Shown here in pieces: positions 15,628 through 47,033 of a DNA stretch of 64,000 nt. This DNA is from Candidatus Omnitrophota bacterium (lineage in GTDB: Bacteria; Omnitrophota; Gorgyraeia; Gygaellales; Profunditerraquicolaceae), in contig JBDRLG010000126.1 in assembly GCA_043813255.1 (NCBI GenBank), positions 2,882 to 66,881 of the forward strand. Reading direction: 5' to 3'. The notes under the pieces were generated by a model. It was not told the origin of the DNA. It worked only from the letters and a program-made list of their open reading frames with translations, and ran no database searches. The position numbers and the translations under genes are program-made. The first letter of the stretch is position 1. Every line of letters starts with the position of its first letter.

Positions 15628-17232
15628 TTATAAATAGTGTTTTTGCCAAAAAATATTATCTGTTATTTTAACAATAAAAATATCTTTTTTTTCAAAGACC
15701 TTTTCAGATTTAGGTATTCTTATTAAAGCAAACTTAGGATTACTTGGTATTAAACTGTTTATATACTCATTAAAAGGATTGATATAGAAATTACCTGTTT
15801 TTAAATAATCCCCATTAAAATGAGGGGTATAAACAATAATATGCGTTATATTGTATCTTTTGCAAAAATTATATATTTCTTTAGGAGAGCATGAATAATA
15901 AGCTTTAAAGAAATCATAAGTGCGTTTTTTTATAATAGGGTAATAATTATTATAATATGGTTCAGATGTTTCTTCATTAATCAATACCTTGCGTTTAGCA
16001 AATGTAGGGATATTATCCATTAGGCTGGGATGGCCGGCGATAAGGATGTTTTTGGGCAAAGTTTGGAGGTAATTATAAAGTTCAGGTTGATTCGCTATGA
16101 TATAATATTTTTGTAAGCAAGGAATAAAGTATAGCCCAATTAGAGAAATAGAAATACACAAGATTATTAATTGTGCTTTTAAGGAGGCAGTGTTTTTTCT
16201 TATTATTGCGGCAATATGGGTGCTAATAAATAATATTAAAAAAAGAGGCAGGGAATACCTCATGAATCTTGAGGGGCCATAAAATTTGTACATAAAAATA
16301 TTTGAAATTATAAAAAAGAATAAAGATATAGTTATAAAATACCAGTATTCTTTAGGTAGTTTAATCAGTTTTTTTCTTAAAATAATAATAATAAAAATAG
16401 AAAGGCCTAAAAGAAAAGATAAAGATGAATCCATGGCTAAGCCGCTCTGGTAATTCGTTATTTGTTTTAAAAAAGAAGGGAAAAGAACAGGAGTCCGGCC
16501 TCCTTCGTAGAATTCTTGCATATTTTTCATGCTTTCCAGGCTTATTAGAGAAATATCTTTCAGGGAATAATTTTTTAATAAAATTATAGAAATTATTGAT
16601 GTTATAAATAATAATAACAATATATGTTTAATCTCCCCCTTTTTATTTTTGACTGTTTCTATTAAAAAATAAAATAAATATACAAAAAAACAAATTAGAA
16701 ATAAAGGAGGATAAAATAGAGAAAGTAAAATTAGAGTAAAACTTGACTTAAAAAATTTTCTGTTGGTAAAAAAATATAAGAACATAATAAAAAATAATAT
16801 ACCAAAGTCTGCCCCATCTCCTGTTCCAAAAACAGAAAAAATTTTTCTGCTCCAGCTAGTAAATATAAAAAGTATACTGGCTATTATAGCTGAATATAAG
16901 CCTGTTGAAAAAAAACACAATCTAAATATATAAAACACAGAAAGAGCACATAGAATAAATGGTAAAACTTTAGTTATGGGAATAGGCGAACAAAAAAAAC
17001 TGGTTATAAAGTAAAAAATATTTAATCCCCAGGGATTTTTAGCATAATAAAAATCAGTTATAATATCATTTTTAAAAAGTTCCTTATCCATATATTTTAG
17101 ATAGGGATAAATTGTTTGTCGTATATCATCATTTATTGCATAATTGTTTGAGAGCAAAGGATATTGGCAATATAAAGTAATTAAAAGAGAAAATAATAAA
17201 ATTATACTTAAAGCTATATTTATTTTTTTCAT
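15628..17232 (-). CDS. Polytopic membrane protein, putative GT-C-fold glycosyltransferase (paralog of 40915-42534)
   Basis: 534 aa. The N-terminal ~11 TM region has an acidic NDD motif in the first loop, and there is a C-terminal soluble domain. It shares long identical stretches with the 40915 gene: FAKRKVLINEETSEPYYNNYYPIIKKRTYDFFKAYY versus YSKRKVLINEETSQPMYANFYPVIKERTYNFFKAYY. Confidence 0.45.
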   Translation of the reverse strand: MKKINIALSIILLFSLLITLYCQYPLLSNNYAINDDIRQTIYPYLKYMDKELFKNDIITDFYYAKNPWGLNIFYFITSFFCSPIPITKVLPFILCALSVFYIFRLCFFSTGLYSAIIASILFIFTSWSRKIFSVFGTGDGADFGILFFIMFLYFFTNRKFFKSSFTLILLSLFYPPLFLICFFVYLFYFLIETVKNKKGEIKHILLLLFITSIISIILLKNYSLKDISLISLESMKNMQEFYEGGRTPVLFPSFLKQITNYQSGLAMDSSLSFLLGLSIFIIIILRKKLIKLPKEYWYFITISLFFFIISNIFMYKFYGPSRFMRYSLPLFLILFISTHIAAIIRKNTASLKAQLIILCISISLIGLYFIPCLQKYYIIANQPELYNYLQTLPKNILIAGHPSLMDNIPTFAKRKVLINEETSEPYYNNYYPIIKKRTYDFFKAYYSCSPKEIYNFCKRYNITHIIVYTPHFNGDYLKTGNFYINPFNEYINSLIPSNPKFALIRIPKSEKVFEKKDIFIVKITDNIFWQKHYL

Positions 17233-17234
17233 GT

Positions 17235-18002
17235 CTATGGATGAAATTTTAATTCTTTAATTAGATCCTTAGGGTTAAAGAAATCTTTTATTTTTTCATA
17301 ATTATTTCTGTACAAATAAGAAATATCTAAAATAACTCTTTTCATCCTTCCTAGTAGTCCGTAATGACTTTTTCCATGCCTTCTTTTATTACAAGATATT
17401 TTTACTTCAGTAATAGAGATTTTTTTACCTCTCATTAATAAAGGAATAAACCGGTGTGATTCCCCATATAATTTAATATCTTTAATTAATTCCTGGCGGT
17501 AAGCCCTAAAGCTACAACAAATTTCATGGAGTTCAGTATTAAATAGTATATTAATTATTTTATTAGCAATTAATGAAGGTAATATTTTATTCAGGAAATT
17601 ATCTTCTCTATGATTTTTCCATCCATTTACCAGATCATAGCCATATTCAATTTTCTCTAGGAATTTAGGAATATCATAAGGATTGTGTTGGAGGTCTCCA
17701 TCCATAGTTATAACTATTTCGCCTTTTGAAAAATAAAAACCGGCAGATAAACTGGCAGTCTGCCCATATTTTTTTATTAATTTAATAATATTTAGATTTT
17801 TATCTTTTTTATGAATTTCACATAGATATTGGTAAGTCTTATCATTGCTCCCATCATCTATAAAAATTATTTCATAAGTTTTATTTATAGTATTCAAAAC
17901 CTCCTTTAATTGAGTATAGAGCAAGATTATATTGTCCTCTTCATTATTAACGGGAATTATTATGGATAGGTATTTTTCAGGAGGATAAACAAATTTATTC
18001 AT
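17235..18002 (-). CDS. GT2 polyprenyl-phosphate glycosyltransferase (GtrB/CsbB/ArnC-like)
   Basis: 255 aa. Contains YLSIIIPVNNEEDNI...IIFIDDGSNDKT...ITMDGDLQHNP. Confidence 0.8.
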   Translation of the reverse strand: MNKFVYPPEKYLSIIIPVNNEEDNIILLYTQLKEVLNTINKTYEIIFIDDGSNDKTYQYLCEIHKKDKNLNIIKLIKKYGQTASLSAGFYFSKGEIVITMDGDLQHNPYDIPKFLEKIEYGYDLVNGWKNHREDNFLNKILPSLIANKIINILFNTELHEICCSFRAYRQELIKDIKLYGESHRFIPLLMRGKKISITEVKISCNKRRHGKSHYGLLGRMKRVILDISYLYRNNYEKIKDFFNPKDLIKELKFHP

Positions 18003-18868
18003 AGATCTTTAAAGGCAATTAATTTTATATTTGATTTTTTAATTAATTCTTTTAACTCGGGGCTAATTAAGGCATTTAACTCTGCTTCTCTGGAATTATT
18101 TAAATAGTATTTTTCTGTATTCAACGGGTAATTATCCCATTCCTCATCAATATATCCGGGATGGCACATTATTTCAATAGTCCCATTTTTTAAATCTAGC
18201 AAGACTTTTTTAAATTCAGAAATTATCGCATTGCTATCAATCCGGGAAATTCCGTAGAAAAAATCCGTAGTTTTTAAATCGCATTTCTGAATAGATAATC
18301 TATTTTGTTTAGAAAATATATTAAGAAATAAATTATTGTAAAATTTGTTTGTGAAAATTCCTGAAGCCCCCAAGATATTACGATAAGGAATTTTATTAAT
18401 ATATCTTACCTTAGAAATGCCATATTCTTTGGCTATTTTAATCGTGGTGTCAAATATGGGTTTTATCAGGTGTAAGTGCTTTTCGCTATCGAGATGAGTG
18501 ATTGAGATATTTTTTTTTAGTAGTTTCTCTATCTGGGCCCTGCATTCCGATTCTAATTCTTTGAAGTCTAAATTTCCAGCATAAATGGAATAGAGAAAGA
18601 TAAAAATATTATTGAAAAAAGAACCTTTTTTCGTAAGGCTTTTTAATTTCAAAGCAGGTAAAATAGGGTTGCCTCTAAATATATTCAAATGAATTCCTAC
18701 TGGTAATTGGGGATTCTCAGTTATTAAATCCACGGCATTATCAAACCCTGGCATATTTGGTAATAATGAGGTATTAGTTAATATACCTTCTTTAAAGGCT
18801 TTTATTATGCCTTTATTTATACTTTTGCTTAAGCCAAAATCATCAGCATTAATTATAATTTTCCGCAT
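17999..18868 (-). CDS. YdjC/ChbG/HpnK-family carbohydrate deacetylase
   Basis: 289 aa. The N-terminal motif is IINADDFGLSKSINKGIIKAFKEGILT, with a His-rich centre THLDSEKHLHL. This family deacetylates (Glc)NAc-containing substrates. Confidence 0.85.
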   Translation of the reverse strand: MRKIIINADDFGLSKSINKGIIKAFKEGILTNTSLLPNMPGFDNAVDLITENPQLPVGIHLNIFRGNPILPALKLKSLTKKGSFFNNIFIFLYSIYAGNLDFKELESECRAQIEKLLKKNISITHLDSEKHLHLIKPIFDTTIKIAKEYGISKVRYINKIPYRNILGASGIFTNKFYNNLFLNIFSKQNRLSIQKCDLKTTDFFYGISRIDSNAIISEFKKVLLDLKNGTIEIMCHPGYIDEEWDNYPLNTEKYYLNNSREAELNALISPELKELIKKSNIKLIAFKDL

Positions 18869-18897
18869 TATATAAGATCGATTTTAATTTGATGCCC

Positions 18898-20316
18898 TTA
18901 AGTATCATTTTTATTTGAGAATAACCATCTTAAAGCCACTTTAATATACCTAAAAAATTCATTTTTCGATTTTGAATTTATGACTCTTTTTAATATGTAT
19001 GATGGCCTAAAGTAAAATTCTCTATAAAATCTTCCAGCTAATTTTTCTATTTCATTTTGCGTTAATGTTGTCCATGGGGTTGGAAGGCGTTTTTTATCCA
19101 GGTCTATTTTATTTAAAATATATTCTTTCCAATAATCAATACCTGTTGTTTTAATTAATAATTCATTTAAATCGGTATTGGGCTTAGCGATAGTACGACA
19201 TACCTGAATGAAATCCAGTTTCATTTTTTTAGCAAAGTTTATTGAATTTAAAATATCTTTTTTTGTCTCTTCCGGGCTGCCAATAATAAAAAATCCCAAT
19301 GTCTTTATTTTATATTTGTAAGTCAGGTTTATAATCAGGGGTATTTTTTTTGTATCAATGCCTTTATTAATTGTATCCAGTATCTTTGTAGAAGCAGATT
19401 CTATCCCATAGTAAATTTTTTTGCATCCTGCTTCAGAAGCTTTCTTTAAAATATCCTCATCTACAACGTCTATCCTTGACCTGCATGACCATTCAATTTT
19501 TATATTTCGTTTTAATATCCCTTCGCATATTTTTATACCCCGTAATTTGTTTATAAAAAATGTGGCATCAAAAAAATCGATTTCTCTTGCGTTGTATTTA
19601 GTATAGCATTCTTCTATTTCATCTAAGATATTTTCTACACTTCTTTCCCTGTAAGGAATTTTAGAAATAGCGCAAAATTTGCATTTATGAGGGCATCCGG
19701 TGCTGGTAAGCATAATAGTATAATTTTTACGTTGAGACGTAAAAGAATAATAAAGATGATTTGGTAAAAGATGCCTGGCTGGAAAAGGGTATTCATCAAA
19801 GTTGATCGTTTCTTCAGAAGGAGGATTTATTATAAGCGTATTTTTGTCTTTATAAATAACCCCTTTTATATCTTTAAGGCTGAGCTTATTTTCTATTGCG
19901 GATATTAATTTTGGTAATGATTGATTTGCTTCCCCTATAATGCCATAATCAAAACAAGAGTAGGATAAAGATTCCTTTGGATATAAATTGATATTAATCC
20001 CTCCTGTTATTATCTTGACGTCCATATTTGTTTTGAAAAAACCAGCCCATTCAACTACTCTATGAAACCAATAAGTATCAGCCCGAAAGCCAATAATATG
20101 CGGATTGAAATCTTTCAAGATGTTTAAAGTTTCTTCTTTGGTTAGTTTTAAAGCATTGGCATCTATTATAATTACCTTATGCCCCGCTTTTTCTAATATA
20201 GCCGCGACATATGCTAAAATTATAGGCGGGGCTAAACAGAATTCTTCATCTACTATTTTTAAATTTTCGGAGAACTTCCGGTGTTCAAATGGGCAGTGAA
20301 TTAAGGCTATTCGCAT
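18898..20316 (-). CDS. B12-binding domain radical SAM enzyme (class B rSAM, methyltransferase/rearrangement type)
   Basis: 472 aa. The N-terminal Rossmann-like B12-binding region (RIALIHCPF...VIIIDANALK) is followed by a radical-SAM core LTSTGCPHKCKFCA (Cx3Cx2C). Confidence 0.85.
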   Translation of the reverse strand: MRIALIHCPFEHRKFSENLKIVDEEFCLAPPIILAYVAAILEKAGHKVIIIDANALKLTKEETLNILKDFNPHIIGFRADTYWFHRVVEWAGFFKTNMDVKIITGGININLYPKESLSYSCFDYGIIGEANQSLPKLISAIENKLSLKDIKGVIYKDKNTLIINPPSEETINFDEYPFPARHLLPNHLYYSFTSQRKNYTIMLTSTGCPHKCKFCAISKIPYRERSVENILDEIEECYTKYNAREIDFFDATFFINKLRGIKICEGILKRNIKIEWSCRSRIDVVDEDILKKASEAGCKKIYYGIESASTKILDTINKGIDTKKIPLIINLTYKYKIKTLGFFIIGSPEETKKDILNSINFAKKMKLDFIQVCRTIAKPNTDLNELLIKTTGIDYWKEYILNKIDLDKKRLPTPWTTLTQNEIEKLAGRFYREFYFRPSYILKRVINSKSKNEFFRYIKVALRWLFSNKNDT

Positions 20317-20337: not shown

Positions 20338-21324
20338 TTAAAGAAGGTTGATTTTTATTATATTAAGGATAGTATCCAGGTTAAATTGAAATAAATAATT
20401 AAGTTCGATAAAAGATGCGCACCAGCATTCTTTGCAAGTAATATAATTTAATTTGTCAAAAGAATTTTTAAAACCAAGTTCTATAACATTAGGAACGTTC
20501 TTAGAAATTATAAAATTTCGGCCACAACCATACATATCTCCATTTGGTTGCAGCCGGCATATAATTAAGCTATTCACGCATTTGATTTTTGTAGGATTCG
20601 GCCAATTATAAAGATATTTTAATCCTGTAATAGAATTAACTATATAGTTATTCTTTTTTTTCTCTAAAATAAGATTATTAATTGTTCTTTTGTAGTCAGT
20701 TTCTTCAGAAATAACCGGATTCATTTCTAATCCTGCAAGTGTACGTAATCTCGCGGGTTGGAAACTAACAGGAATTTTAAACTCTTTTGCTTTATTTAAA
20801 ATAAATTCAATTTTATCAAGATTAAATTTAGATAAAACAGTATTAAACCTGAGTTTTAGTTTTTTCTTCTTAGCTATTTCTACGGCTTCCATTATATTAT
20901 TGTACGAGCCGTTTCCTCGTATAAAATCATGAATTTTCTCCGGCCCATCAAAACTTAAAGTTAATAGATCAAGTCCGGTTAGTTGGTTAATTTTTTCTTT
21001 TACGAGTGAACCGTTAGAATTTATGTCGATTACCACATTATTTTTTTTTGCATGTTCAATGATTGTTCCTATATCATCTCTTAAAAGGGGATTTCCTCCT
21101 GTGAGATGCAGTACCTGTGTACCCGACTGTTTCATCTCAGTTATTAAAGATAAAATTTTCTCTGTTTCCATTTCAGTCGTTTTCATTTTCCAGCTATCGC
21201 AATATAAACACCTTTGATTGCATCTATATGTCAGCAACCAGCTAACAATTACGGGAGATCTCTTCTTTAATAAATTTGCTTCTAATAGTTTAAATGCTAT
21301 TGATATTTTTTTAGTTGTTTTCAT
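20338..21324 (-). CDS. Radical SAM protein with SPASM/twitch domain (member of 4-paralog family)
   Basis: 328 aa. LLTYRCNQRCLYCDSW is followed by a C-terminal Cys cluster CVNSLIICRLQPNGDMYGC...CKECWC. It is paralogous to 24603, 42527 and 46017 (shared LTGGNPLLRDDIG / SFDGPE..HDFIRG blocks). Confidence 0.85.
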   Translation of the reverse strand: MKTTKKISIAFKLLEANLLKKRSPVIVSWLLTYRCNQRCLYCDSWKMKTTEMETEKILSLITEMKQSGTQVLHLTGGNPLLRDDIGTIIEHAKKNNVVIDINSNGSLVKEKINQLTGLDLLTLSFDGPEKIHDFIRGNGSYNNIMEAVEIAKKKKLKLRFNTVLSKFNLDKIEFILNKAKEFKIPVSFQPARLRTLAGLEMNPVISEETDYKRTINNLILEKKKNNYIVNSITGLKYLYNWPNPTKIKCVNSLIICRLQPNGDMYGCGRNFIISKNVPNVIELGFKNSFDKLNYITCKECWCASFIELNYLFQFNLDTILNIIKINLL

Positions 21325-23353
21325 TATTTTTTTTTATATATATAGCTAAATTAAGTATGTTTCTTTGATTTTCGCTAAGAGAATGCATCCTAAGGTAGTT
21401 ATTTTTTTTAATTCTATCAAGCTTTTTGAATTCTTTTAATTCAGTATTTTTAAAATGGAAATGTTCAGATGCGTATTTATAGTTAATTTTAGCGATATTA
21501 TTGAATTGTGATAAGGCTTGCTCAGGCATCCCTTTAATTAAATAAAGAGTTGCTAAATTTAGATGTGCGATAATGCAATTATGGTTAAGTTTTGTAGCGT
21601 CATTATAACTGCCAATAGCGGCAGATACATTGAAACCTTCGCCAAATCTTAAATAATCTTTATTATGTTCATAAAGATAGCCAAGAAAAAGATTTGAAAT
21701 ATATAAAAATATTTTGTCTTTAGTTAATCCAAGGGTTTTTTTAAGTTCTGCGATTGCTTTATTTTTAAAATCCATATTTGGATATTCAACTGCCAATTTG
21801 TTATAAAAAAAGGCGAGCAAAAAATGTTTCCAGTCATAATTATTGTTTAGATTATTAAGTCTTTGGATAATCCGAGGCACATAATTCTTGTCTATATTAT
21901 CTATTTCTAAAACATCTAAAATTTCTTTTATTTCTTTGTTTTGATTAAATGTTTTATATCTATTTAGGACTTCATCAGGGGCATCAAAACTAAAACAAGT
22001 AGTTAAAATATATAAAATATGAATTATTGTTTCATTTCTTTTTTCTTTTGTCAGATAATCTTCTATAGTATCAATATAGAACCCTTTTATGTCATAATCA
22101 GTGATACGCAGGATTGATTCTATCATCTGGATATCTAAAGTTTTTGGTGAATATACATATAAAGGCTCCATTTCAAAAAAATTTTCAGGTGTTATACCGT
22201 TTTCTATGGGTTTTATTTGATATAAGAATAAATATAACGCTAATTTCTCATTAAGGTTGATAAATTTTCTTTTAAAACTATTAATTATTTGTTTGAACTT
22301 AGCTATATTATTTAAATAATAACAGTCTGGAAATCCAAATTCTTTTATAGTGTTTCTAACAGTTGGCGATATTATAACTTGTATATCTTTTTGAGAATTT
22401 AATGTTTTCCAGTTTAATAATTTTCTTTTTTCTTTTTTTATGTCATTCTTTAACTTTTTACATATTTTAAGTAAATAATTGTCTTTGGCCTTTCGCGGTT
22501 TAGACGGCCATTTTAATCTACAGTTTCTTAAGCTGGATAAATATCGATAATATTGCTCAAAATTATACATTAAATTGTCTTTTCTTTCAATTAATAAATC
22601 TTTGTATTCAGCGCAGATAGATAGTGTTTTGAAACATCCATTATCTATATTTCGGATGTAGTTTATTAATTCAAAACTTTCGGCAAAATCAACAGGTATG
22701 TTTTTATTAATGTAGGCTTCCCAGAAACTACTATAATAATTCTCTTTATTTTTCGTGTTAAAGTCATTAATTAAGGTTTCATTTATATATTTAGATGAAA
22801 AAATATTATATTTATTAATACTAATAATCTTATCTTTGGTCAGCAAAAATTGGCTTGGGTCACATTCAAATATTTCTTCATCTGCAATCAGCCAATCAAT
22901 TATCTGCTGTTTTTGGATATAATTAATCTGTTTTTTGGAAAGGTTATTTATGCTAATAGTTGCTAAACTGTTCAGGGAAGGAATAAATTCTTGTATGATC
23001 CCTCTCTCTTTTTTTCCATTGACCGGTAACGTTATTTCATAGCATAAAGGCACTTTTTGTCCGCACAAGGATAACAGTTTGTATGTTTGGTCTAAGTTTG
23101 TATTTGATTTGCCGATTTTAAAGAACCACAATCTTTCATCTTCGCTCTTAAGTATGAATTTTGCGTTTTGTCCGCTCAGCATAGGTTGTTTATCAATTAA
23201 TGTGAAAGTCAATTTTTTAAATATTTTATCAGACAGGGATTTTTTTTCTAAAATTAAATTAATTGCTTCTTTTTCAAGCTGGGAATTGTCAATCCTATTA
23301 CAGCCAAAATTAGAAAACATAAGAATTAATATAAGTATTTGGATAATTTTCAT
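21311..23353 (-). CDS. Secreted/lipoprotein-like large hypothetical protein (possible atypical kinase-like N-domain, TPR-like C-terminus)
   Basis: 680 aa with a signal peptide ending ...FSNFGC. The segment GQNAKFILKSEDERLWFFKIGKS...IIQEFIP...IIDWLIADEEIF is reminiscent of protein-kinase-like folds (PI4K-II/CotH-type). This is a weak call by eye. Confidence 0.35.
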   Translation of the reverse strand: MKIIQILILILMFSNFGCNRIDNSQLEKEAINLILEKKSLSDKIFKKLTFTLIDKQPMLSGQNAKFILKSEDERLWFFKIGKSNTNLDQTYKLLSLCGQKVPLCYEITLPVNGKKERGIIQEFIPSLNSLATISINNLSKKQINYIQKQQIIDWLIADEEIFECDPSQFLLTKDKIISINKYNIFSSKYINETLINDFNTKNKENYYSSFWEAYINKNIPVDFAESFELINYIRNIDNGCFKTLSICAEYKDLLIERKDNLMYNFEQYYRYLSSLRNCRLKWPSKPRKAKDNYLLKICKKLKNDIKKEKRKLLNWKTLNSQKDIQVIISPTVRNTIKEFGFPDCYYLNNIAKFKQIINSFKRKFINLNEKLALYLFLYQIKPIENGITPENFFEMEPLYVYSPKTLDIQMIESILRITDYDIKGFYIDTIEDYLTKEKRNETIIHILYILTTCFSFDAPDEVLNRYKTFNQNKEIKEILDVLEIDNIDKNYVPRIIQRLNNLNNNYDWKHFLLAFFYNKLAVEYPNMDFKNKAIAELKKTLGLTKDKIFLYISNLFLGYLYEHNKDYLRFGEGFNVSAAIGSYNDATKLNHNCIIAHLNLATLYLIKGMPEQALSQFNNIAKINYKYASEHFHFKNTELKEFKKLDRIKKNNYLRMHSLSENQRNILNLAIYIKKNNENN

Positions 23354-38970: not shown

Positions 38971-40906
38971 TGATTAAATAGATTATTAAAGCTGTTATGC
39001 TGAATATACTTATCCATAGTCCCACAAAAAAATCTAAAGGCTTATATTTTAGGTTTATTATATAACTACCGGTAATATTTAATTTGATTCCTAATAGTCC
39101 TTGATAATTGAATATTTCCCCATTATCTGTTTTCCAGCTTTTATGGTAATTTTGGTTTATAATTAAAGTATCAGGCTGTTTAAGAGTTATTTTTATTTTT
39201 ATATCGTTAGGACTAAAATATAAAAGTTCTGTTTTATTTTTCTGGTTAAGAGTATATATCTCTCCTTTATATGCAGGATTAATTGTCCCGGATAGAGTTA
39301 AATCAACAGATTCATTTTTTGGTAAATCATAAAAATTTTCAACGTAAACACATTCTTTTTTTAATCCGCCCGTTTTAATAAAGTATTTAGGTACAGCGTA
39401 TTCCCCGATATTTATTATTCCATGTTGTATAAAATTTACCAATCCTATATTTTGATTTAATAATATCCAAAAAGGCTGATATGAACGAATGTCTTTAAAT
39501 CCATTATAACCGGGCAGATCTCTTGGTTCTTCTTTTTTAAAGATTTCAGCCTGGAAAAAAGAAGGATATTTCTTGCATATAGGGATTTTTTCATAGACTA
39601 AGTCACGGAATAATAACCTGCTATGGTAAAATATATTAGTTATGCCGGCTATAAGCGTTAATAGTATTAAAAATTTAATAAATTTTTGTTTTATATGCAG
39701 TTCATTTAAAAAATTTCCCGAAATAATGGATATTAAAAATGGGGGAAAAAAACCAAAATATTTATTAAGTCTCCACATGCTGTAATCAAATGGTATCAAT
39801 CGCGATAAGTATTTAAATAAGTCAATAGGGCTGTTTGGTCCAAATTGTATAAGCAGGAATATAAAAAAAATAACAACATAATTCAACACGCGTTTTGAAT
39901 AAAAAATAGAAATAATAAAAATCAATAAAGGTATATAACCTAAATACATTGTTGAATACCCTCTAAAATTAGGATCAAGCAAAGAATCTTTTAATTGAGA
40001 AAGATTTAAGCAGGCCCCAAAGCCTTTAATAGAAGCAGAAATAAAGGTGTATGAATCTTTATATGGAGTGATATCAGAGGGAATTTTTTGAGAAAACAGC
40101 TGTAAAAAAGGCAATGTTTTAACAGAGCTGACTAATAGTGAACAAATAACAGTTATAAAAAAAATAGAAATATAAAAAAAACTTATATTGATTTTTCGCT
40201 TATTAGTTATTGTTATGATATTTAAACAAGAAAAAAGAAATAAAAATAGTAAAATGGGAAATAATATTAAAGGGTTAGAAAGAAAAATTAAGCTTAACGT
40301 TAGAACTAAATATATTATGGATTTTTTATCAGTCTTACATTTTATAAAAAAAGCCATCAGCCAAGGTAGTAAATAAAAAAACAATTTTTCTAAATTACCA
40401 TCAATAGCTTCGTATGCTCCCCAATTGCATAGAATGAATAATAAACTTGAAAACATCGTGCTTATAAGAGAATATTTTAAGACGTGTCTAGTTAGATAAA
40501 ACATGCCTGACGCGCCGATAATAAATATCAGGAAGGCCATAAGCCTTATCCCTGTTATTTCTCCAAATAACAGAATTAAAATAAAAAAAGGGGTCAGGCA
40601 AAAATTAGATGGATGTGCGATAAAAGGATATCCACCGCTTAAATATGGTGTTCGTAGCGGTAATTGATGGTATTCTAATATAGTTGTTTTAGAAAGTGCC
40701 GCGTAATAATAATTTCTCCACCAGTCGTTTTCATTTATGGTTGTGTTAGGAATATTCTTCAGAAGAGGCAGATAAAACATGGCTGTAATAATAATAATAA
40801 GTAAAATGCAGAGCAGTTCTTTTTTTGAAGACAAAAAATTTTTAGGTCCTTTGTCCTGATAATAATTTTGGCAGCTATTTATTAAGCTTGTTTTGTTTAT
40901 TGCCAT
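38945..40906 (-). CDS. YfhO-like GT-C polytopic membrane protein (paralog pair B)
   Basis: 653 aa. The C-terminus LIINQNYHKSWKTDNGEIFNY is paralogous to the 37084 gene. Confidence 0.55.
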   Translation of the reverse strand: MAINKTSLINSCQNYYQDKGPKNFLSSKKELLCILLIIIITAMFYLPLLKNIPNTTINENDWWRNYYYAALSKTTILEYHQLPLRTPYLSGGYPFIAHPSNFCLTPFFILILLFGEITGIRLMAFLIFIIGASGMFYLTRHVLKYSLISTMFSSLLFILCNWGAYEAIDGNLEKLFFYLLPWLMAFFIKCKTDKKSIIYLVLTLSLIFLSNPLILFPILLFLFLFSCLNIITITNKRKINISFFYISIFFITVICSLLVSSVKTLPFLQLFSQKIPSDITPYKDSYTFISASIKGFGACLNLSQLKDSLLDPNFRGYSTMYLGYIPLLIFIISIFYSKRVLNYVVIFFIFLLIQFGPNSPIDLFKYLSRLIPFDYSMWRLNKYFGFFPPFLISIISGNFLNELHIKQKFIKFLILLTLIAGITNIFYHSRLLFRDLVYEKIPICKKYPSFFQAEIFKKEEPRDLPGYNGFKDIRSYQPFWILLNQNIGLVNFIQHGIINIGEYAVPKYFIKTGGLKKECVYVENFYDLPKNESVDLTLSGTINPAYKGEIYTLNQKNKTELLYFSPNDIKIKITLKQPDTLIINQNYHKSWKTDNGEIFNYQGLLGIKLNITGSYIINLKYKPLDFFVGLWISIFSITALIIYLINVKKTTYN

Positions 40907-40914
40907 ATAATTCC

Positions 40915-42534
40915 TTATATATTTGTATGCTGAAAAGAGGAATCTTTTATTTTAATAACAAAAATATCTCCATCGTCAAATAGAATTTCATTTTTTGGAG
41001 TATCCATTAAAATAAATTTTTTTCTACCGGCTATTAAACTTTTAATATAAGTATTAAAAGGATTAAGATAGAACTCGGCATTGGCTAAATAATCTTTGGA
41101 AAAATGCCTTCTTTCGACTATCAAATGAGTAATATGGTATTTTTTGCAGAAGTTATAAACTTCTGCAGCTGAATTTGAATAATAGGCTTTAAAGAAATTA
41201 TAGGTTCTTTCTTTTATTACAGGGTAAAAATTAGCATACATCGGCTGAGATGTTTCTTCATTAATTAAAACCTTCCTTTTTGAATATACTGGAATATAAT
41301 CCATTGATGTGGGATGGCCGGCAATAAGTATATCTTTCGGCAGTGTTTGTAAGAAGTTATATAGTTTGGGCTTAGGCGCAATACTATAGTCACTATATAA
41401 AGTAGGAATAAATAAAACAGCAGAAAAAAATAAAAAGCTTATTAATATGAAAAATCTTACGTTTATATTCTTTATTTTTCCTAAAACGTTAGCAATATTA
41501 ATAGACACAAGAATCGTTAATATAGTAGGCAGAGAATATCTTATATATCTGGCAGGCCCATAGAGTTTATAAAGCATAATTGTTGCAAATATATATAAGA
41601 TAAATGACGCAATAATAAAATAACAAAGCTTTTTTGGTGCTTCGAAAGAGTGCCTTTTTAAAAATAATAGTAAGAATAACAATGCCAGTATAAGAAATTT
41701 TACAGGAAATGTAATGGCAAAGCCTGTTTCTGCATTAACCAATTGTTCTAATAATGAGGGATAAAATAATACCTTTCTGCCTCCGGGATAAAACTCAGGC
41801 ATGCCGGATATATTATTGAATCCGAATAATTGAAGCTGACTGTTTGATGCTTTTAGAATAACTAAAAAAGAGATAATTAGTACCAAGAATAATAAATAAT
41901 ATATTTCAGCTTTTTTAATCTTTTTATACTTATAGAAAATATCCCAGATATAGGCCAGAAGACATATAAGAAATGTGGGTGGATAGAAAAATATCAATTG
42001 AAAAATCAAAGAAAGGCCCATCCGCAAGATATTTTTTTTTAAAAAATAGTATAAGAAAATAATAAAAAATATCATCGCGAAATTCATGACTCCCCCAGCC
42101 CCCATAAATTCATATTTATTATCGGACCATATTATAAAAATATATAGTACTCCGGACAAAATACCAGCGATATTCCCTTTTAAAAGCTTTCCGATTTTAA
42201 ACATATATAAGGATGATATAAAACAGAGAAAAAAAGGCAGGATTTTAGTGAATTGTATCGGGTCGTAAAACAGGCTTATTATAGAATAAAAAATATTAAC
42301 TCCCCAAGGGCTCCATTTTGAGTAAAAATCAGTTATAAAATCATTATTAAAGAGGCTCTTATCCTGGTTCTTTAAAAAAATATATATATTCTGTCTTACA
42401 TCGTCATTTAAGGCGTATTTATTGATTAATAACGGATATTGGCAGTATAAAGTAATTAAAAAAGAGGCCAGAATTAGAAAAATAATTATTTTATTTTCTG
42501 AAATTTTCTCGATATCAAACATGGTTTTAATCAA
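40915..42534 (-). CDS. Polytopic membrane protein, putative GT-C-fold glycosyltransferase (paralog of 15628-17232)
   Basis: 539 aa. The NDDVRQNIYIFL / SPWGVNIFYSII blocks and a long C-terminal block are shared with the 15628 gene. Confidence 0.45.
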   Translation of the reverse strand: MIKTMFDIEKISENKIIIFLILASFLITLYCQYPLLINKYALNDDVRQNIYIFLKNQDKSLFNNDFITDFYSKWSPWGVNIFYSIISLFYDPIQFTKILPFFLCFISSLYMFKIGKLLKGNIAGILSGVLYIFIIWSDNKYEFMGAGGVMNFAMIFFIIFLYYFLKKNILRMGLSLIFQLIFFYPPTFLICLLAYIWDIFYKYKKIKKAEIYYLLFLVLIISFLVILKASNSQLQLFGFNNISGMPEFYPGGRKVLFYPSLLEQLVNAETGFAITFPVKFLILALLFLLLFLKRHSFEAPKKLCYFIIASFILYIFATIMLYKLYGPARYIRYSLPTILTILVSINIANVLGKIKNINVRFFILISFLFFSAVLFIPTLYSDYSIAPKPKLYNFLQTLPKDILIAGHPTSMDYIPVYSKRKVLINEETSQPMYANFYPVIKERTYNFFKAYYSNSAAEVYNFCKKYHITHLIVERRHFSKDYLANAEFYLNPFNTYIKSLIAGRKKFILMDTPKNEILFDDGDIFVIKIKDSSFQHTNI

Positions 42535-43507
42535 ATAATTTCTTTATATTTAAAAACTCATCCAGATTAAATTTTAGGAAACAATTCATTTCCAATGTGC
42601 TGGTGCACCAGCAGCCTTCACATTTTGAAACAGGTAAATTAAGATGCGTTTCTTCGAGAAAAGGAGTTAAACAATTAGGGGCTTTCGTTTTCTCCATCAG
42701 CATCGTGCACGGGTATAAATCTCCTTCGGAAGAAATACAATAAGTTAATCTTCCTCCATAACAGGTCATTTTATTATAAGAAGGCCAGTCATATAAATAC
42801 TTTAACGCTGTTAAAGAATTTATGATGTATTTATTGTTTTTTTTTAATAAAATTAGTTTTTTAATTGTTTTTCTATAATTCTCTTTATCAGGAAAAAGGT
42901 GATTAATATTTGCCTCTCCGGAATGAACGTAACTCAAGGGTTGAAATTTTACTTTTACATTTAGTTCTCCGGCCTTTTCTAAGATAAAATCAACAGAATC
43001 CAAATTATATTTTGATAAAGTAGTATTAAATTTCGTGACTAAGCAATGCCTTTGTGCCAATTTTACAGCAGCTATTGTATCTTTATACGAGCCTTTCCCT
43101 CTGATAAAATCATGTATATCTTCCGGCCCGTCAAAACTCAGCTTAAGAATATCTAAATGTTGTAATTCTTCTATCTTAAGAGGCAATAATGAACCATTAG
43201 ATGTTATTCCGGTAAAAATATTCTTACTGTGACAGTAATTTATAATCTCTCCTATATCTTCTCGTAATAAAGGTTCCCCTCCGCTGAATATGATTATTTT
43301 TGTTCCTTTTTTAGAAAATGTATTAATAATTGATAATATTTCTTTAGTGTTTAGTTCTTTGCAGGGCGTATTCCATCTAGAGCAGTATTTACATTGCCGA
43401 TTGCATCTGTTAAGCAGATGCCAGCTGATAATTAAAGGTATCTTTTTGTTAAACAGCTTTACTTTGATGACTGCTTTTAATGAATCCCATTTAATTCTTA
43501 AGTTCAT
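42527..43507 (-). CDS. Radical SAM protein with SPASM/twitch domain (paralog family)
   Basis: 326 aa. LLNRCNRQCKYCSRW is followed by the C-terminal Cys set CYGGRLTYCISSEGDLYPC...CEGCWC. Confidence 0.85.
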   Translation of the reverse strand: MNLRIKWDSLKAVIKVKLFNKKIPLIISWHLLNRCNRQCKYCSRWNTPCKELNTKEILSIINTFSKKGTKIIIFSGGEPLLREDIGEIINYCHSKNIFTGITSNGSLLPLKIEELQHLDILKLSFDGPEDIHDFIRGKGSYKDTIAAVKLAQRHCLVTKFNTTLSKYNLDSVDFILEKAGELNVKVKFQPLSYVHSGEANINHLFPDKENYRKTIKKLILLKKNNKYIINSLTALKYLYDWPSYNKMTCYGGRLTYCISSEGDLYPCTMLMEKTKAPNCLTPFLEETHLNLPVSKCEGCWCTSTLEMNCFLKFNLDEFLNIKKLFD

Positions 43508-44579
43508 TTTTTATTACCTCAAAAATTCCATCCGCAATTATTTGATTTTGTTTTTCTCCTACATGGCAATAATCTATAAAATAAGTTCCTGATTTATTAT
43601 CAAAAAGATGAGAAAGATTATGGAATTTTGGCCTGTTTAATCTGTCTGCCAAGGTGTATGTATAAAAATAAATTCTTTCTAATTCTTTATTTTTAAAAGC
43701 AAGTGCTGTTATTTCTTCATTTGTTTTTGGATTGACCATGAAAAGCACGGGCTGCCAAAAGAAACTGTATTTAAAACCATATGCTTGAGACAGCCTTTCA
43801 ATTAAATCCATATTTTTTTTATAATCTTTTATGATTTGATACGCTAGATTTTCCAAAGCAGTTTCATCATACATATTGTTCTTTTTAAAAACGTTATTCA
43901 AATAGGAAAATAAATAAATAAATTTGGAATTAGTTAAAAGTGCCTCTTCGCTCAGTTTATTAAATATTCTGGGTTCTAATCCCAGTTTCATTTTCCATCT
44001 GTTATAATTATAGATAAGCCCTGCTTCCCTGTTTTGTAATGCTGCCAGTACATCATTAACCCCGTCGTAAAAAATTACATAATCGGGGATGTTGCCTTTT
44101 TTTAACTGAGTAATTAAAAGAATGATTTCTTGAGTTAGGACATAGCCGGCTTCTCCAAAGTTAGTCACAGAATACGACTCTGTGTTTTTATTTATATTTT
44201 TTGAAAGCAAAGAAGCTATGGTAAAGTTATCTCTTACGCCTGTACCCCAAACAGTAGATCCGCCAAAAATAAAAACTTTATTTAATTTTTTTGTATCTTT
44301 AGGGTTCCAGGTCTTTCTTATGCCCTCATCTGATATATTAATAAATTTACCCGCATAACCCTGTCTTCTCCATTCATAGAAAGGATAATAATTTTTTTTA
44401 AGTTGATCGAATTCCATAAAATACTGTTTTGCCCAAGGGGAATCTTTGTAGATAGATGATTCGTAGCGTTTATTTTTATTCCAAGAATAAACATCTTTTA
44501 TAAAAAAATAAAATCTGGCGCTTAATTCAAGCCCCGCTAATAAAATAATAAAAAATATTATTTTTAGTATTAATTTCAT
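43491..44579 (-). CDS. SGNH-hydrolase-fold protein, membrane-anchored
   Basis: 362 aa with an N-terminal TM helix. Block I is VFIFGGSTVWGTG (a putative Ser nucleophile in GGST), block III is VIFYDGVNDV, and block V is IDYCHVGE (DxxH). Confidence 0.5.
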   Translation of the reverse strand: MKLILKIIFFIILLAGLELSARFYFFIKDVYSWNKNKRYESSIYKDSPWAKQYFMEFDQLKKNYYPFYEWRRQGYAGKFINISDEGIRKTWNPKDTKKLNKVFIFGGSTVWGTGVRDNFTIASLLSKNINKNTESYSVTNFGEAGYVLTQEIILLITQLKKGNIPDYVIFYDGVNDVLAALQNREAGLIYNYNRWKMKLGLEPRIFNKLSEEALLTNSKFIYLFSYLNNVFKKNNMYDETALENLAYQIIKDYKKNMDLIERLSQAYGFKYSFFWQPVLFMVNPKTNEEITALAFKNKELERIYFYTYTLADRLNRPKFHNLSHLFDNKSGTYFIDYCHVGEKQNQIIADGIFEVIKNELKN

Positions 44580-46015
44580 TTTAAATTTTGTTTTCTAAAC
44601 ATGGAAATTAATAATTTTGTTCCATTCCAATAAAAATTCATCAGTTTTAAAAAATAATTATTCTTGATAGATTTAATAATAAATGACGGGTTTAAATAAA
44701 ATTTAATATAAGCTTTTTTAATTAAAAATTTTAAATCTTGAGAACTTAAATCCGGTGTATTTAGTACCGGATTTTCGGGAAGAAATGTCCAGTTTGACCA
44801 GTTTTGATGATGCGGGATATATCCTTTTTCTAATGATAATCTATAAAACTCTGTTCCTACTAATGGAAGAGCTATGTAAAAATCAGCGGCAGTGGGTTTA
44901 ATTACATTTAGAAATCTTAAAGTCTCTTTGAAAGTTTGTTTAGTTTCTCCCGGGTAGCCTATAATAACACATGCCGTTGCGGCTATCCCTATTTTGTGCG
45001 TTAATCTGAAGGCCTCTTTAATTTGAGCCAGAGTAAATTGTTTATTCATGGCATTTAAAATTTGTTGAGACCCTGATTCTACTCCAAAGCGTAATAAGCG
45101 GAATTTCGCTTTTTTTAGTTTTTTTAATATGGGTTCATCAACAGAATCGACCCGCAGCATGCAGGTAAGATTAAGATTGTAATCTCTTTCTATTAAGCCA
45201 TCCAGTATTTTAAATAGCCGGGGTTTATTGGCTAATAAGCAGCTGTCGCTTATCTCAATGCATTTTATATTGTGTTTTTTGACTAATAAATCAATTTCAC
45301 TTAATATATACTCCGCGCTTTTAAAATAAATACAATTACCCCAAACACTTCTTATTCCGCAAAAAGTACAATTATAACGGCATCCTCTGGATGTAAATAA
45401 ATTTGTATACGGGCTCAACTCAATTTCTTCGTAAGACCAAAAATGATGTAATTTGATTCCGTATTTGTTCATTGGTAAAAGGTGATAAGCTGGAAAAGGC
45501 AATTTATCCAGATTTGTTATTCTTTCTCTTACTGGATTAAATTTCATATGTCCGTTATCTCTATAAACAAGCCCTTTTACTTTAGAAATATCTTTATTAT
45601 TTTGCAATGTTTCTAAGAGTTCAAATAATGTTATTTCTCCTTCTCCGATTATCCCAAAATCAATGACTTTGTATCCAGCCATAGTTTCTAATGGCAGAGC
45701 GGAAAAATGAGGCCCTCCCATAATACTTATGCATTTAGGGTTTATTGCTTTTGCTATTTTTAGGATATCTATTGTTTGAAGGAAGGTAGGAGTCAATGAA
45801 CTAACTGCAATTGCGTCAAAATCTTTAGGAAGATATTTATGTAAATCTTCCAAGAGAATATTATCAACTGCTGGATCAAATATTTGGACTTCAAACCCTT
45901 TATCTAATAAAAAAGCAGCTAATCCCGCCAGATTTACTGGAGGCGTTTTTCCAAATGATTTACTAATCTTCGAGTATAGATAATGATGAGGTATACCGAC
46001 AAAAAGAATTTTCAT
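44576..46015 (-). CDS. B12-binding domain radical SAM enzyme (second copy)
   Basis: 479 aa. The N-terminal B12-binding Rossmann-like domain is followed by the rSAM core FTSRGCRYNCTFCG. It is paralogous to 18898-20316. Confidence 0.85.
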   Translation of the reverse strand: MKILFVGIPHHYLYSKISKSFGKTPPVNLAGLAAFLLDKGFEVQIFDPAVDNILLEDLHKYLPKDFDAIAVSSLTPTFLQTIDILKIAKAINPKCISIMGGPHFSALPLETMAGYKVIDFGIIGEGEITLFELLETLQNNKDISKVKGLVYRDNGHMKFNPVRERITNLDKLPFPAYHLLPMNKYGIKLHHFWSYEEIELSPYTNLFTSRGCRYNCTFCGIRSVWGNCIYFKSAEYILSEIDLLVKKHNIKCIEISDSCLLANKPRLFKILDGLIERDYNLNLTCMLRVDSVDEPILKKLKKAKFRLLRFGVESGSQQILNAMNKQFTLAQIKEAFRLTHKIGIAATACVIIGYPGETKQTFKETLRFLNVIKPTAADFYIALPLVGTEFYRLSLEKGYIPHHQNWSNWTFLPENPVLNTPDLSSQDLKFLIKKAYIKFYLNPSFIIKSIKNNYFLKLMNFYWNGTKLLISMFRKQNLK

Positions 46016-46016
46016 T

Positions 46017-47033
46017 TTAAAGTAATATTTTTCTTATTAAATGTAAAATATCCAGCTTAAAAGCCATTAAATAATTTAATTCTATTGTGCCGCAAAATCC
46101 ACAACCGCTACATGGCGGCAAATCAGGTAGATTATTAAATGCCTCTTTGAAGCCAACCTCTGCGCAATTGGGAATTTTAGTATCATATTTAAGGCGGTCA
46201 CAAGGAGAAATTTCTCCATTTGCTGCAATCATGCAAAATATCTTGCCTCCCCAGCATTTTAATTTTTCATATTGAGGCCAGTTATATATATGATGAAGGC
46301 CGCGTAAAGAATTCCTTAATAGAAAATTATTTTGTTTTTTATAGGAGATAAGCTTATTTATTGTTTGTTTAAAAAGAGATTCCAAAGGTTCTATCGAATC
46401 TAATTTTCCTGTCGTATTCTTGTACTCTATTTCTTTTAAAGGTTGAAAAGCTACAATGGTATTAAACTTTTTTGCAATAGCGAGAATATCATCAATATAT
46501 TTAATATTAAATTTAGTTAAAGTAGTAGTAAAAATAAAAAATATTTTATTAGTTTGTGCGCATGAAGCAGCATTTATTGCCCAATTATAGCTTTCTTTTT
46601 TTCCTCTTACTAATTCATTAATATCTGCAGGGCCATCTAAACTTATTTTGAGTAAATCCAAAGCTTTTAGTTCTTTTGCTTTTTTTTCAAAAAGATAACC
46701 GGTGGAATTCATCTCGGGAGAAATCCCTAATCTTTTGCAATAGGTTATAATATCTCCTATATCTTCTCTTAGTAAAGGTTCTCCTCCGCTAAAGGAAATT
46801 TTTTTAGTTCCACACCTTTTGATTTCTTCTAAAAGTTTAAAAATTATTTTTGTTGGAAGCTCTTTTTCACTGGGTGATTTCCAGATTTTACAATACTCGC
46901 ATTTAGAAGGGCATTTTTCCGTAAGCTGCCAGCGTATTGCCAAAGGGGTCCTTTTATTAAAAAGTTTAACTTTAAAAATTATATTTAAAGCTTCTAATTG
47001 TTTTTTGTAATTTAATCTTGTTTTTTTTCTCAT
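46017..47033 (-). CDS. Radical SAM protein with SPASM/twitch domain (paralog family, divergent cluster motif)
   Basis: 338 aa. The cluster motif here is LTEKCPSKCEYCKIW (Cx3Cx2C). The C-terminal Cys set is CWGGKIFCMIAANGEISPC...CSGCGFC. Confidence 0.8.
   Translation of the reverse strand: MRKKTRLNYKKQLEALNIIFKVKLFNKRTPLAIRWQLTEKCPSKCEYCKIWKSPSEKELPTKIIFKLLEEIKRCGTKKISFSGGEPLLREDIGDIITYCKRLGISPEMNSTGYLFEKKAKELKALDLLKISLDGPADINELVRGKKESYNWAINAASCAQTNKIFFIFTTTLTKFNIKYIDDILAIAKKFNTIVAFQPLKEIEYKNTTGKLDSIEPLESLFKQTINKLISYKKQNNFLLRNSLRGLHHIYNWPQYEKLKCWGGKIFCMIAANGEISPCDRLKYDTKIPNCAEVGFKEAFNNLPDLPPCSGCGFCGTIELNYLMAFKLDILHLIRKILL

Follow-up and report, generated by a model that had tools for sequence, protein, structure and literature searches.

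A probable sugar-tailoring role for radical-SAM enzymes in a surface-polysaccharide locus of an Omnitrophota bacterium

What do radical-SAM (S-adenosylmethionine) enzymes act on when many of them are encoded among the genes of a surface glycan? This question is raised by a 64-kb stretch of DNA from a Candidatus Omnitrophota bacterium (contig JBDRLG010000126.1, positions 2,882 to 66,881; hereafter the window). A preliminary description of the window, made from its letters alone, had proposed carbohydrate rather than peptide chemistry. We likewise favor, with a probability of about 0.6, the reading that these genes serve the decoration of a lipopolysaccharide (LPS)-type O-polysaccharide made by an ABC-transporter-dependent locus and that the radical-SAM enzymes among them act on sugars rather than on peptides. 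The window has approximately 29% G+C and carries nearly all of its genes on the minus strand; those described below between 15,628 and 63,685 all lie on this strand. We scanned its approximately 49 open reading frames (ORFs), which are present at every coordinate given earlier, against Pfam and NCBIfam. Eight of these approximately 49 genes encode a radical-SAM domain, a clear enrichment for 64 kb.

Half of the eight are paralogs of approximately 330 amino acids, as first described, and we label these twitch-type proteins rTw. They are encoded at 20338-21324 (rTw_A), 24603-25598 (rTw_B), 42527-43507 (rTw_C), and 46017-47033 (rTw_D). Pfam Radical_SAM matches all four (E 1e-19 to 1e-25; 8e-25 for rTw_B, 1e-24 for rTw_C, and 2e-19 for rTw_D), and they share 36-42% pairwise identity over their full length (42% between rTw_A and either rTw_B or rTw_C). 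Each has the CX3CX2C motif and partial TIM-barrel core of the radical SAM superfamily (PF04055). Seven cysteines are invariant in a 19-sequence family alignment of the four rTw proteins and 15 homologs: C35, C39, and C42, and then C249, C267, C297, and C300. The last four follow the pattern C249-x17-C267-x~29-C297-x2-C300 and fall in a C-terminal module that a predicted model shows as a beta-hairpin and a helix. SPASM domains (PF13186 / TIGR04085) have approximately seven cysteines and two auxiliary clusters, whereas only four C-terminal cysteines are invariant here. Pfam SPASM has no match in three of the proteins and scores 19.8 bits in rTw_D, under its cut-off of 21.5. A twitch domain is a shortened form of the SPASM domain with one auxiliary Fe-S cluster (PMC9012708). 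The sequences fit a radical-SAM site together with a single auxiliary site ligated by Cys throughout, which would be twitch-type rather than seven-Cys SPASM. The profile searches thus keep the paralogs among radical-SAM/twitch proteins, and of the SPASM/twitch label that they were first given, only the twitch half stands.

Two further genes encode class B radical-SAM enzymes, one at 18898-20316 (type 1) and one at 44576-46015 (type 2). Both combine a B12-binding domain (PF02310; E 1e-15 and 2e-17, 57.8 and 63.8 bits against a cut-off of 32.1) with PF04055 (E 6e-20 and 1e-21), and cobalamin use is therefore predicted. Their 31% identity to each other agrees with the earlier view that they are paralogs. 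The best sequence match of the B12-type protein in the PDB is AprD4, itself a B12-domain protein.

The remaining two radical-SAM genes belong elsewhere. The protein encoded at 13788-14831 on the plus strand, whose start is likely the ATG at 13815, matches Radical_SAM (E 5e-18), SPASM (E 6e-19, 68.6 bits), and an NCBIfam twitch-domain family. It had been counted as a fifth enzyme beside the four paralogs. Its SPASM/twitch character is borne out, but it is only 22-27% identical to rTw over approximately 140 residues and represents a different family, with a 49%-identical ortholog in Omnitrophota locus L008. The other, at 62558-63685 (Radical_SAM E 2e-22), lies outside the interval first described and was missed there, although the enzymes listed within it are all present. 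It has a Cys-rich, full SPASM-like C terminus with 11 cysteines after residue 248, and its SPASM score of 16.6 bits is below threshold.

The rTw and B12-type genes are organized into two modules. Module A comprises rTw_A, the type 1 B12 enzyme, a YdjC-family carbohydrate deacetylase (17999-18868; Pfam E 4e-62), a short GT2 glycosyltransferase of polyprenyl-phosphate type (17235-18002; Glycos_transf_2 E 5e-30), and memX-1 (15628-17232), a GT-C-fold membrane glycosyltransferase. Module B comprises rTw_D, the type 2 B12 enzyme, an N-terminally anchored protein of 362 residues (43491-44579), rTw_C, and memX-2 (40915-42534), which is 46% identical to memX-1 over 523 residues (alignment A2). The order rTw, B12 enzyme, hydrolase, and eventually GT-C paralog does occur twice, as first noted. 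It had been taken to mark duplicated cassettes, however, and the sequences argue for ancient parallel modules instead. The modules are old rather than recent copies because orthologs of rTw_A in other metagenomes are 54-87% identical to it, compared with at most 42% for its paralogs. A recent tandem duplication was also rejected because the paralogs of the two modules are only 31-46% identical, every paralog has nearer orthologs in other loci, and the two hydrolases are unrelated. The GT2 gene is present in only one module.

Of the two hydrolases named earlier, YdjC is secure. NCBIfam places it nearest to chitin disaccharide deacetylase (170 bits, below 227). The 362-residue protein of module B is a candidate SGNH/GDSL-like hydrolase at best: it has no match at default thresholds and a weak one to Lipase_GDSL_2 (E 0.017, 16.1 bits against a cut-off of 32.9) over residues 104-182, beginning at profile position 1. 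Its sequence includes GGS, GxND-like, and DxxH-like strings, and a PDB search gave only CgnD (E 0.015). The same search with memX found no match. The NCBI annotation gives memX-1 as 487 residues, versus 534 for the ORF.

Gene fusions in relatives join the radical-SAM enzymes of this family to sugar enzymes. A family profile search over 1.84 billion cluster representatives shows that the rTw family is large, with more than 150 clusters at 50% identity scoring above 317 bits at full length. One member (P0146) is a fusion of a DegT domain (24-398) to a following rTw domain (410-731), and another (P0177) has rTw (1-322) first and DegT (362-727) second. These two opposite orders argue for genuine functional coupling between the twitch enzyme and the sugar aminotransferase. 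The fused rTw domains retain all seven cysteines. The fused DegT domains are 31-37% identical to a DegT/DnrJ/EryC1-family aminotransferase encoded in the window directly downstream of rTw_B (23371-24597; Pfam E 1e-67), for which NCBIfam matches to PseC, WecE-like, RfbH, and DesI families are all below threshold. DegT also directly adjoins rTw in loci L006, L007, L092, L093, and L098, and in L022 a DegT-like ORF overlaps an rTw-like one. A third fusion (P0212) joins a B12 enzyme to rTw.

The B12-type enzymes are in turn fused to glycosyltransferases. In Elusimicrobiota, orthologs of the type 1 enzyme (L009, 733 residues; L011, 727 residues; 47-52% identical) carry a C-terminal GT2 domain, and GT2-radical-SAM fusions also occur in L011 (875 residues) and L087 (636 residues). 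For the fused GT2 domain and for the two window GT2 proteins encoded at 3946 and 17235, the best matches are AglJ, PpgS, Dol-P-hexose transferase, and ArnC, each below threshold (for the 17235 protein, ArnC 131 and PgfS 119 bits). Such scores point to the polyprenyl-phosphate sugar synthase class rather than to orthology with any one of these enzymes.

The neighborhoods of family members tell a similar story of sugar enzymes beside radical-SAM genes. We gathered 37 loci that encode a true member of the family. They came from metagenomes and from metagenome-assembled genomes (MAGs) of Omnitrophota, Elusimicrobiota, Myxococcota, Planctomycetota, deltaproteobacterial, and DPANN-labelled origin; a metagenome scan with the generic pattern GGEPLL had yielded only 11 true family loci. 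In the 31 loci of at least 6 kb, a BLAST-based census, which undercounts divergent families and fused domains, finds a B12-type enzyme in 23, GT-C-like genes in 13, GT2 in 11 (plus two fused), GDSL/TPR proteins in 11, DegT in 9, and LPG_synthase_TM genes beside rTw or B12-type genes in 9. Orthologs of the type 1 enzyme (47-56% identical) precede an rTw gene in L008, L009, L011, L091, L093, and L095 and follow one in L003. Orthologs of rTw_D (45-51%) come after a type 1 enzyme in L008, L009, L093, and L095. Synteny with the window extends further in two cases: L088 repeats module A (rTw, YdjC, GT2, memX, and a DUF3108-like protein) without the B12 enzyme, and L087 repeats a core of WecA, oxidoreductase, Wzm, and Wzt genes followed by radical-SAM genes.

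Two side observations concern these loci. At 10900-12432 of L011, LPG_synthase_TM is fused to a SAM methyltransferase domain, and at 6090-7460 of L095, a polyprenyl-phosphate-type GT2 is fused to a methyltransferase, which hints that the conserved core includes methylation of a lipid-linked sugar. Homologs of rTw and memX are also found in DPANN-binned contigs (L019, a Woesearchaeota-labelled MAG, and P0105, a Nanoarchaeota-labelled MAG), where they may reflect horizontal transfer or mis-binning.

The genes around the modules are those of an ABC-transporter-dependent O-polysaccharide locus. The ABC ATPase Wzt, which bears a carbohydrate-binding Wzt_C domain, and the ABC-2 permease Wzm are encoded at 56629-59096 (Wzt_C E 2e-30, with ABC_tran and ABC2_membrane), and NCBIfam scores Wzt at 175-180 bits against galactan/teichoic-acid export ATPases. 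An FAD oxidoreductase, a WecA-like phosphoglycosyltransferase (PF00953), and a GT4 enzyme are encoded at 59105-62523 (Amino_oxidase, Glycos_transf_4, and Glycos_transf_1). The WecA-like protein scores 84 bits against NCBIfam WecA, and the oxidoreductase at 59105 weakly resembles UDP-galactopyranose mutase. A two-domain glycosyltransferase of 1296 residues (52754-56644; Glycos_transf_2 at 13-181 and GT1/GT4-type Glycos_transf_1 at 1089-1269) is a candidate backbone polymerase. The set also includes an O-antigen ligase family (Wzy_C) membrane protein on the plus strand (12700-13818; E 5e-20), with a 47%-identical ortholog in L001, and an LpxL-like acyltransferase at 4605. Between this core and module B lie a GT2 gene (51530-52414; Pfam E 1e-33) and a gene for a flippase-like membrane protein of LPG_synthase_TM, the Pfam family of HpnL and AglD (50365-51411; E 3e-29). 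The latter scores 36.8 bits against the NCBIfam flippase-like domain, below the cut-off of 43.2.

Read in the direction of transcription, from high to low coordinates, the radical-SAM gene at 62558 is followed by GT4 (61378), WecA-like (60402), FAD oxidoreductase (59105), Wzm (58275), Wzt (56629), the 1296-residue glycosyltransferase (52754), GT2 (51530), LPG_synthase_TM (50365), two PMT_2 genes (48675 and 47512), module B (46017 to 40915), memY-2 (38945), memY-1 (37084), a carbamoyltransferase (35185), two YfhO-like genes (33107 and 31017), an AsnB-like gene (29152), a third YfhO-like gene (27050), a TPR protein with a weak GDSL-like region (25608), rTw_B (24603), DegT (23371), a 680-residue protein (21311), module A (20338 to 15628), and a 233-residue protein (14841). 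Nine of the genes from 15.6 to 50.3 kb are of GT-C type. Besides memX-1 and memX-2, these are three YfhO-like paralogs (27050-29152, E 2e-19; 31017-33131, a member of alignment A4; and 33107-35269, E 8e-14), the first 48% identical to the other two. There are also two PMT_2 (ArnT/PMT-like) enzymes (47512-48672 and 48675-50339, E 3e-14 and 8e-7). The last two of the nine, memY-1 (37084-38970) and memY-2 (38945-40906), are membrane proteins 34% identical to each other, counted through the relation of the memY family profile to the YfhO-like profile (hhalign 99.5%, E 2e-22). Orthologs of memY-2 occur in L003, L008, L086, and L093. GT-C enzymes have a multi-span fold whose first periplasmic loop contains an acidic residue, and they take sugar from a lipid-phosphate-sugar donor; the window proteins are assigned to this class. 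The use of such lipid-phosphate-linked donors by GT-C enzymes is established (PMC11127046).

One alternative is maturation of a ribosomally synthesized peptide that is then modified post-translationally (RiPP). The substrate of the radical-SAM enzymes would in that case be a peptide or protein whose gene lies elsewhere, and the glycan genes would be mere neighbors or would glycosylate that peptide. The solved sequences closest to rTw are SkfB and CteB, and many RiPP maturases appear among the NCBIfam matches, all below threshold. A sister subfamily (P0045, P0040, and P0032), approximately 40% identical, is always found in a cassette of Omnitrophota loci L001, L089, and L090 that runs from PqqD through an ORF of approximately 50 codons and ScmC to rTw/B12-type enzyme(s), a SPASM radical-SAM enzyme, and an ABC-2 transporter. 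The short ORF lies between PqqD and ScmC (L001, 6995-7159; L089, ~4560-4710; L090, 3795-3950) and is conserved in all three loci, with the pattern ...KPE..K..L.(T/S)PE..T..., followed by hydrophobic sequence rich in Gly/Ala and finally by (T/S)P(A/V)KS. Lipobox-like ends, LAGC(T/S)PAKS, occur in two of these peptides and would leave a lipopeptide of six residues. The cassettes look like an undescribed RiPP-like or lipopeptide system beside WecG and PMT_2 genes, and because of them some members of the rTw family very probably do act on a peptide.

The window itself differs from these cassettes, and for its enzymes we consider the peptide alternative quite improbable. PqqD and ScmC have no Pfam match among its approximately 49 proteins, and tblastn of the window with PqqD, ScmC, and the peptide of L001 gives nothing below E 0.3. 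A hidden precursor gene between 13.8 and 47 kb is also unlikely because the intergenic gaps there are all 198 nt or shorter. There is no N-terminal RiPP recognition element (RRE) domain in rTw_A, where only one helix precedes the CX3CX2C motif, which starts at residue 35. The closest solved fold to rTw_A is BlsE, a sugar-nucleoside enzyme. The precursor gene with a free or fused RRE that marks a radical-SAM-dependent RiPP system is found beside the enzymes of L001, L089, and L090 and not beside those of the window. A RiPP system within the window was therefore rejected, and the peptide alternative is kept because of those three loci. PqqD, ScmC, and the peptide occur in only 3 of the 31 loci, orthologs of rTw_A have a glycan context (L088), and fusions to DegT and polyprenyl-phosphate GT2 domains are difficult to explain for a peptide enzyme. 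The earlier picture of radical-SAM genes interleaved with GT-C genes and lacking a precursor gene is thus confirmed. Its argument for carbohydrate chemistry gains from the fusions, the GT2 class, the BlsE-like fold, and the census, but it does not extend to the family as a whole, and the chemistry itself is deduced.

Several points weigh against sugar tailoring as set out above. The three sister loci place rTw and B12-type enzymes together in the PqqD, ScmC, and peptide cassette. GT2 and radical-SAM genes are also associated in mycofactocin, a RiPP-derived cofactor. The fusions are metagenome gene calls that could in principle be frameshift artefacts, although the two opposite domain orders argue otherwise. 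The only flippase-like gene of the window is 3-30 kb away from the radical-SAM modules. Tailoring may proceed either on a lipid carrier or on nucleotide sugars.

If the enzymes do tailor sugars, then gene content, folds, paralogy, synteny, and fusions allow a pathway to be sketched, in which we infer the substrates, the order of steps, and every reaction. The WecA-like enzyme, the GT4 enzyme, and the 1296-residue dual glycosyltransferase would assemble the backbone on undecaprenyl phosphate, and Wzm/Wzt would export it. In parallel, short DPM1/ArnC/PpgS-like GT2 enzymes on the cytoplasmic side of the membrane would attach single sugars to polyprenyl phosphate. Cytoplasmic enzymes could remodel these sugars while they are bound to the lipid carrier or immediately before they are attached to it. 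YdjC would remove an N-acetyl group, much as in the reactions of HpnK and ArnD or in the one that follows PpgS; ArnC/ArnD and PpgS are precedents for remodelling of a lipid-linked sugar. The rTw enzymes might abstract a hydrogen from the sugar and oxidize a C-OH group to a ketone, with the fully Cys-ligated auxiliary cluster as electron sink. BtrN is a dehydrogenase with a fully ligated auxiliary cluster that is the proposed electron acceptor (PMC9012708). DegT could then transaminate the ketone, following the logic of BtrN and its aminotransferase. In favor of this scheme, the window has no conventional enzyme for a keto sugar: SDR, 4,6-dehydratase, and Gfo-type dehydrogenase families are all missing from the scanned proteins. 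The reverse order, equally carbohydrate-based, is that of DesI/DesII, in which transamination is followed by radical deamination (PMC11434129).

In the later steps of this scheme, the B12-type enzymes would add a methyl group or carry out an HpnJ-like rearrangement. An AsnB-like glutamine amidotransferase (29152-31023; Asn_synthase E 4e-75 and GATase_7) would amidate, and a NodU/CmcH-type carbamoyltransferase (35185-36885; Carbam_trans_N E 5e-65, Carbam_trans_C E 3e-63, NodU 154 bits and below threshold) would carbamoylate. NCBIfam matches the AsnB-like protein to XrtA/PEP-CTERM amidotransferase at 357 bits (cut-off 817) and to asparagine synthase TIGR01536 at 340 bits, above the cut-off of 267. 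The flippase-like LPG_synthase_TM protein could expose the lipid-linked donors to the periplasm, and the nine GT-C enzymes would move them to the polymer, each module closing with its own memX. A possible role of the GDSL-like proteins is the addition or removal of acyl groups.

A related proposal is that the lipid is the end product. Here GT2, YdjC, the B12 enzyme, the other radical-SAM enzyme, and LPG_synthase_TM would make a modified, possibly cyclitol-type glycolipid head group for the membrane, as HpnI, HpnJ, and HpnK do for hopanoids. The best curated families for the window proteins are HpnJ (173 bits for the 18898 protein and 191 for the 44576 protein) and HpnK (155 bits for YdjC), and HpnL is itself an LPG_synthase/AglD-family protein. 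The Elusimicrobiota and Myxococcota loci L009, L011, and L013 have the core of GT2, B12 enzyme, rTw, and LPG_synthase_TM without GT-C or export genes, and SHC is present at a low level in Omnitrophota. However, every Hpn score falls far short of its equivalog cut-off (577.6 for HpnJ and 232.6 for HpnK; HpnH reaches 59-75 of 225 bits), the GT2 proteins match ArnC, AglJ, and PpgS and not HpnI, and no shc or hpn gene is found among the scanned window proteins. Membership in HpnI/J/K was rejected because the scores fall two- to three-fold under these cut-offs and because of the ArnC/AglJ/PpgS-like GT2. In Omnitrophota loci, a GT-C enzyme closes each module, from which we take the lipid-linked sugar to be a donor and a glycolipid end product to be unlikely.

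In a route of the kind known for antibiotic deoxysugars, the chemistry could instead take place on soluble nucleoside diphosphate (NDP) sugars, whose products would pass to Leloir glycosyltransferases or be loaded later onto lipid, possibly with a protein rather than LPS as acceptor. The DegT family and the nearest sugar radical-SAM enzymes, BlsE and DesII, act on nucleotide- or nucleoside-linked sugars (PMC3715490; PMC11434129), and the PMT_2, YfhO, and TPR proteins could glycosylate proteins as well. On the other hand, B12-type enzymes are fused directly to polyprenyl-phosphate sugar synthase domains, and YdjC is encoded between a B12 enzyme and GT2, as ArnC/ArnD-type logic would have it. 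Neither a nucleotidyltransferase nor an NDP-sugar dehydratase is found among the scanned window proteins, and Wzt_C and the Wzy_C-family ligase point to LPS. We therefore give this route low odds.

Sugar tailoring on a lipid carrier may also be a broader phenomenon, and we offer the following generalization tentatively, with more doubt than belief. In uncultured anaerobic Omnitrophota, Elusimicrobiota, Myxococcota, Planctomycetota, and Desulfobacterota, a common and so far undescribed pathway would use radical-SAM enzymes to remodel sugars borne on polyprenyl phosphate. The rTw and DegT enzymes would make amino or deoxy sugars independently of NAD and O2, the HpnJ-like B12 enzyme would either C-methylate the sugar or convert it to a carbocycle by ring contraction, LPG_synthase_TM would flip the product, and dedicated GT-C enzymes of new families (memX/memY) would install it on LPS.

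The known arrangement that the window resembles most closely is the three-component system (GtrA/GtrB/Gtr*; CsbB/GtcA/YfhO; the C. youngae PPPRS/MATE/GT136 set with its auxiliary epimerase; and ArnC/ArnD/ArnEF/ArnT). In both cases a GT2 synthase, a flippase-type protein, and a GT-C enzyme accompany an O-polysaccharide pathway, and YfhO, PMT_2, and GT-C folds are present in the window too. ArnD is an auxiliary enzyme that alters the lipid-linked sugar before transfer. Action of auxiliary enzymes on the lipid-linked sugar ahead of transfer would be a further shared feature (PMC11127046). The window differs in having nine GT-C genes, a flippase candidate of LPG_synthase_TM type rather than GtrA, MATE, or ArnEF, and eight radical-SAM auxiliaries (twitch, SPASM, and B12), which the characterized systems are not known to contain. 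Three-component glycan decoration with an added radical tailoring layer is the best-supported description of the locus in our analysis.

Three other systems share individual features with it. The hopanoid enzymes HpnH, HpnI, HpnJ, HpnK, and HpnL comprise the same five families of radical-SAM enzyme, GT2, B12 enzyme, YdjC, and LPG_synthase_TM. HpnI glycosylates the lipid, HpnK deacetylates the sugar, and HpnJ carries out a radical rearrangement. In contrast to that system, the window set is embedded among GT-C and Wzm/Wzt glycan genes, in addition to the differences in score, GT2 class, and hopanoid gene content given above. The antibiotic sugar enzymes (BtrN with its aminotransferase, DesI/DesII, BlsE, AprD4, and GenK) are likewise small radical-SAM proteins without an RRE, are paired with DegT, and in BtrN include a twitch-type four-Cys auxiliary site (PMC9012708). 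However, they are only 13-20% identical to the window proteins and serve secondary metabolism, whereas the window enzymes are multi-copy within a surface glycan assembly locus of an uncultured anaerobe. The SPASM/twitch RiPP maturases (SkfB, CteB, PqqE, and the SynChlorMet proteins ScmC/ScmE/ScmF) share the radical-SAM core with a C-terminal Cys-cluster domain and include the closest solved sequences; the window differs in lacking RRE, precursor, and ScmC, in having four cysteines instead of seven, and in the sugar-enzyme fusion partners of its family.

To our knowledge, nearly all of the radical-SAM sugar chemistry described so far belongs to antibiotic pathways or to the hopanoid side chain. 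Our literature searches found no description of radical-SAM enzymes in O-antigen, undecaprenyl-linked, or lipid-linked surface-glycan decoration pathways, in agreement with the earlier remark, whose author was aware of no characterized system of this kind. If the proposed role is correct, then strict anaerobes routinely diversify their surfaces by radical chemistry. It would also provide functions for the rTw family and for two unannotated GT-C families (memX and memY) and a concrete role for the LPG_synthase_TM/HpnL-type proteins that are unexplained in hopanoid clusters, and it could account for the entry of branched or carbocyclic residues of unusual kinds into surface polymers. The DegT-rTw and B12 enzyme-GT2 fusions make the hypothesis directly testable. 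For genome mining, a twitch/SPASM enzyme beside a B12-type radical-SAM enzyme need not mean a RiPP cluster.

Several other genes in the region have less defined roles. A 680-residue protein with an N-terminal lipoprotein-like signal (...FSNFGC) and C-terminal TPR matches below threshold is encoded at 21311-23353, and L088 has a counterpart of 678 residues in the same position. The protein encoded at 25608-27092 passes the thresholds of TPR families and has a weak N-terminal GDSL-like region (Lipase_GDSL_2 27 bits, below the cut-off). The PMT_2 protein encoded at 47512 is short (386 residues versus 554 in its neighbor), and it is followed by an ORF of 101 codons without a family match (47121-47426). 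This ORF was rejected as a detached C terminus because it is not similar to the longer paralog. The carbamoyltransferase ORF overlaps that of YfhO-like 33107 by 85 nt (35185-35269), and the GDSL/TPR ORF at 25608 overlaps that of YfhO-like 27050 by 43 nt (27050-27092); the true starts are probably further downstream. In the 198-nt gap at 36.9 kb, a promoter/terminator scan scored no better than shuffled sequences.

The flanks of the window provide a few additional observations. A partial ORF at its edge (63667-63972) is weakly similar (E 6e-4) to an S24/GNAT protein of the L001 cassette, and the cluster probably extends past this edge, beyond 62558-63972. At the other end, an AglJ/PpgS-like short GT2 (3946), the homolog of lipid A-type lauroyl/myristoyl acyltransferases at 4605, and an MGDG-synthase/GT28-like enzyme (5464) are encoded in a row at 3946-6621. 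This GT2 is the nearest relative in the window of the GT2 domain fused to B12-type enzymes in Elusimicrobiota. A type II secretion-like secretin with a C-terminal TonB_C-like domain (8193-10154; TonB_2 E 1.5e-5) is preceded, in the order of transcription, by T2SS-C-like and AAA_22 ATPase genes. Corrinoid salvage genes at 876-2668, approximately 15 kb from the first B12-type radical-SAM gene, encode a BtuF-like periplasmic binding protein (876-1766) and a CobO/BtuR corrinoid adenosyltransferase (2165-2668). Upstream of the BtuF-like gene, a cobalamin riboswitch (RF00174, 76 bits) lies at 1948-2132 on the minus strand.

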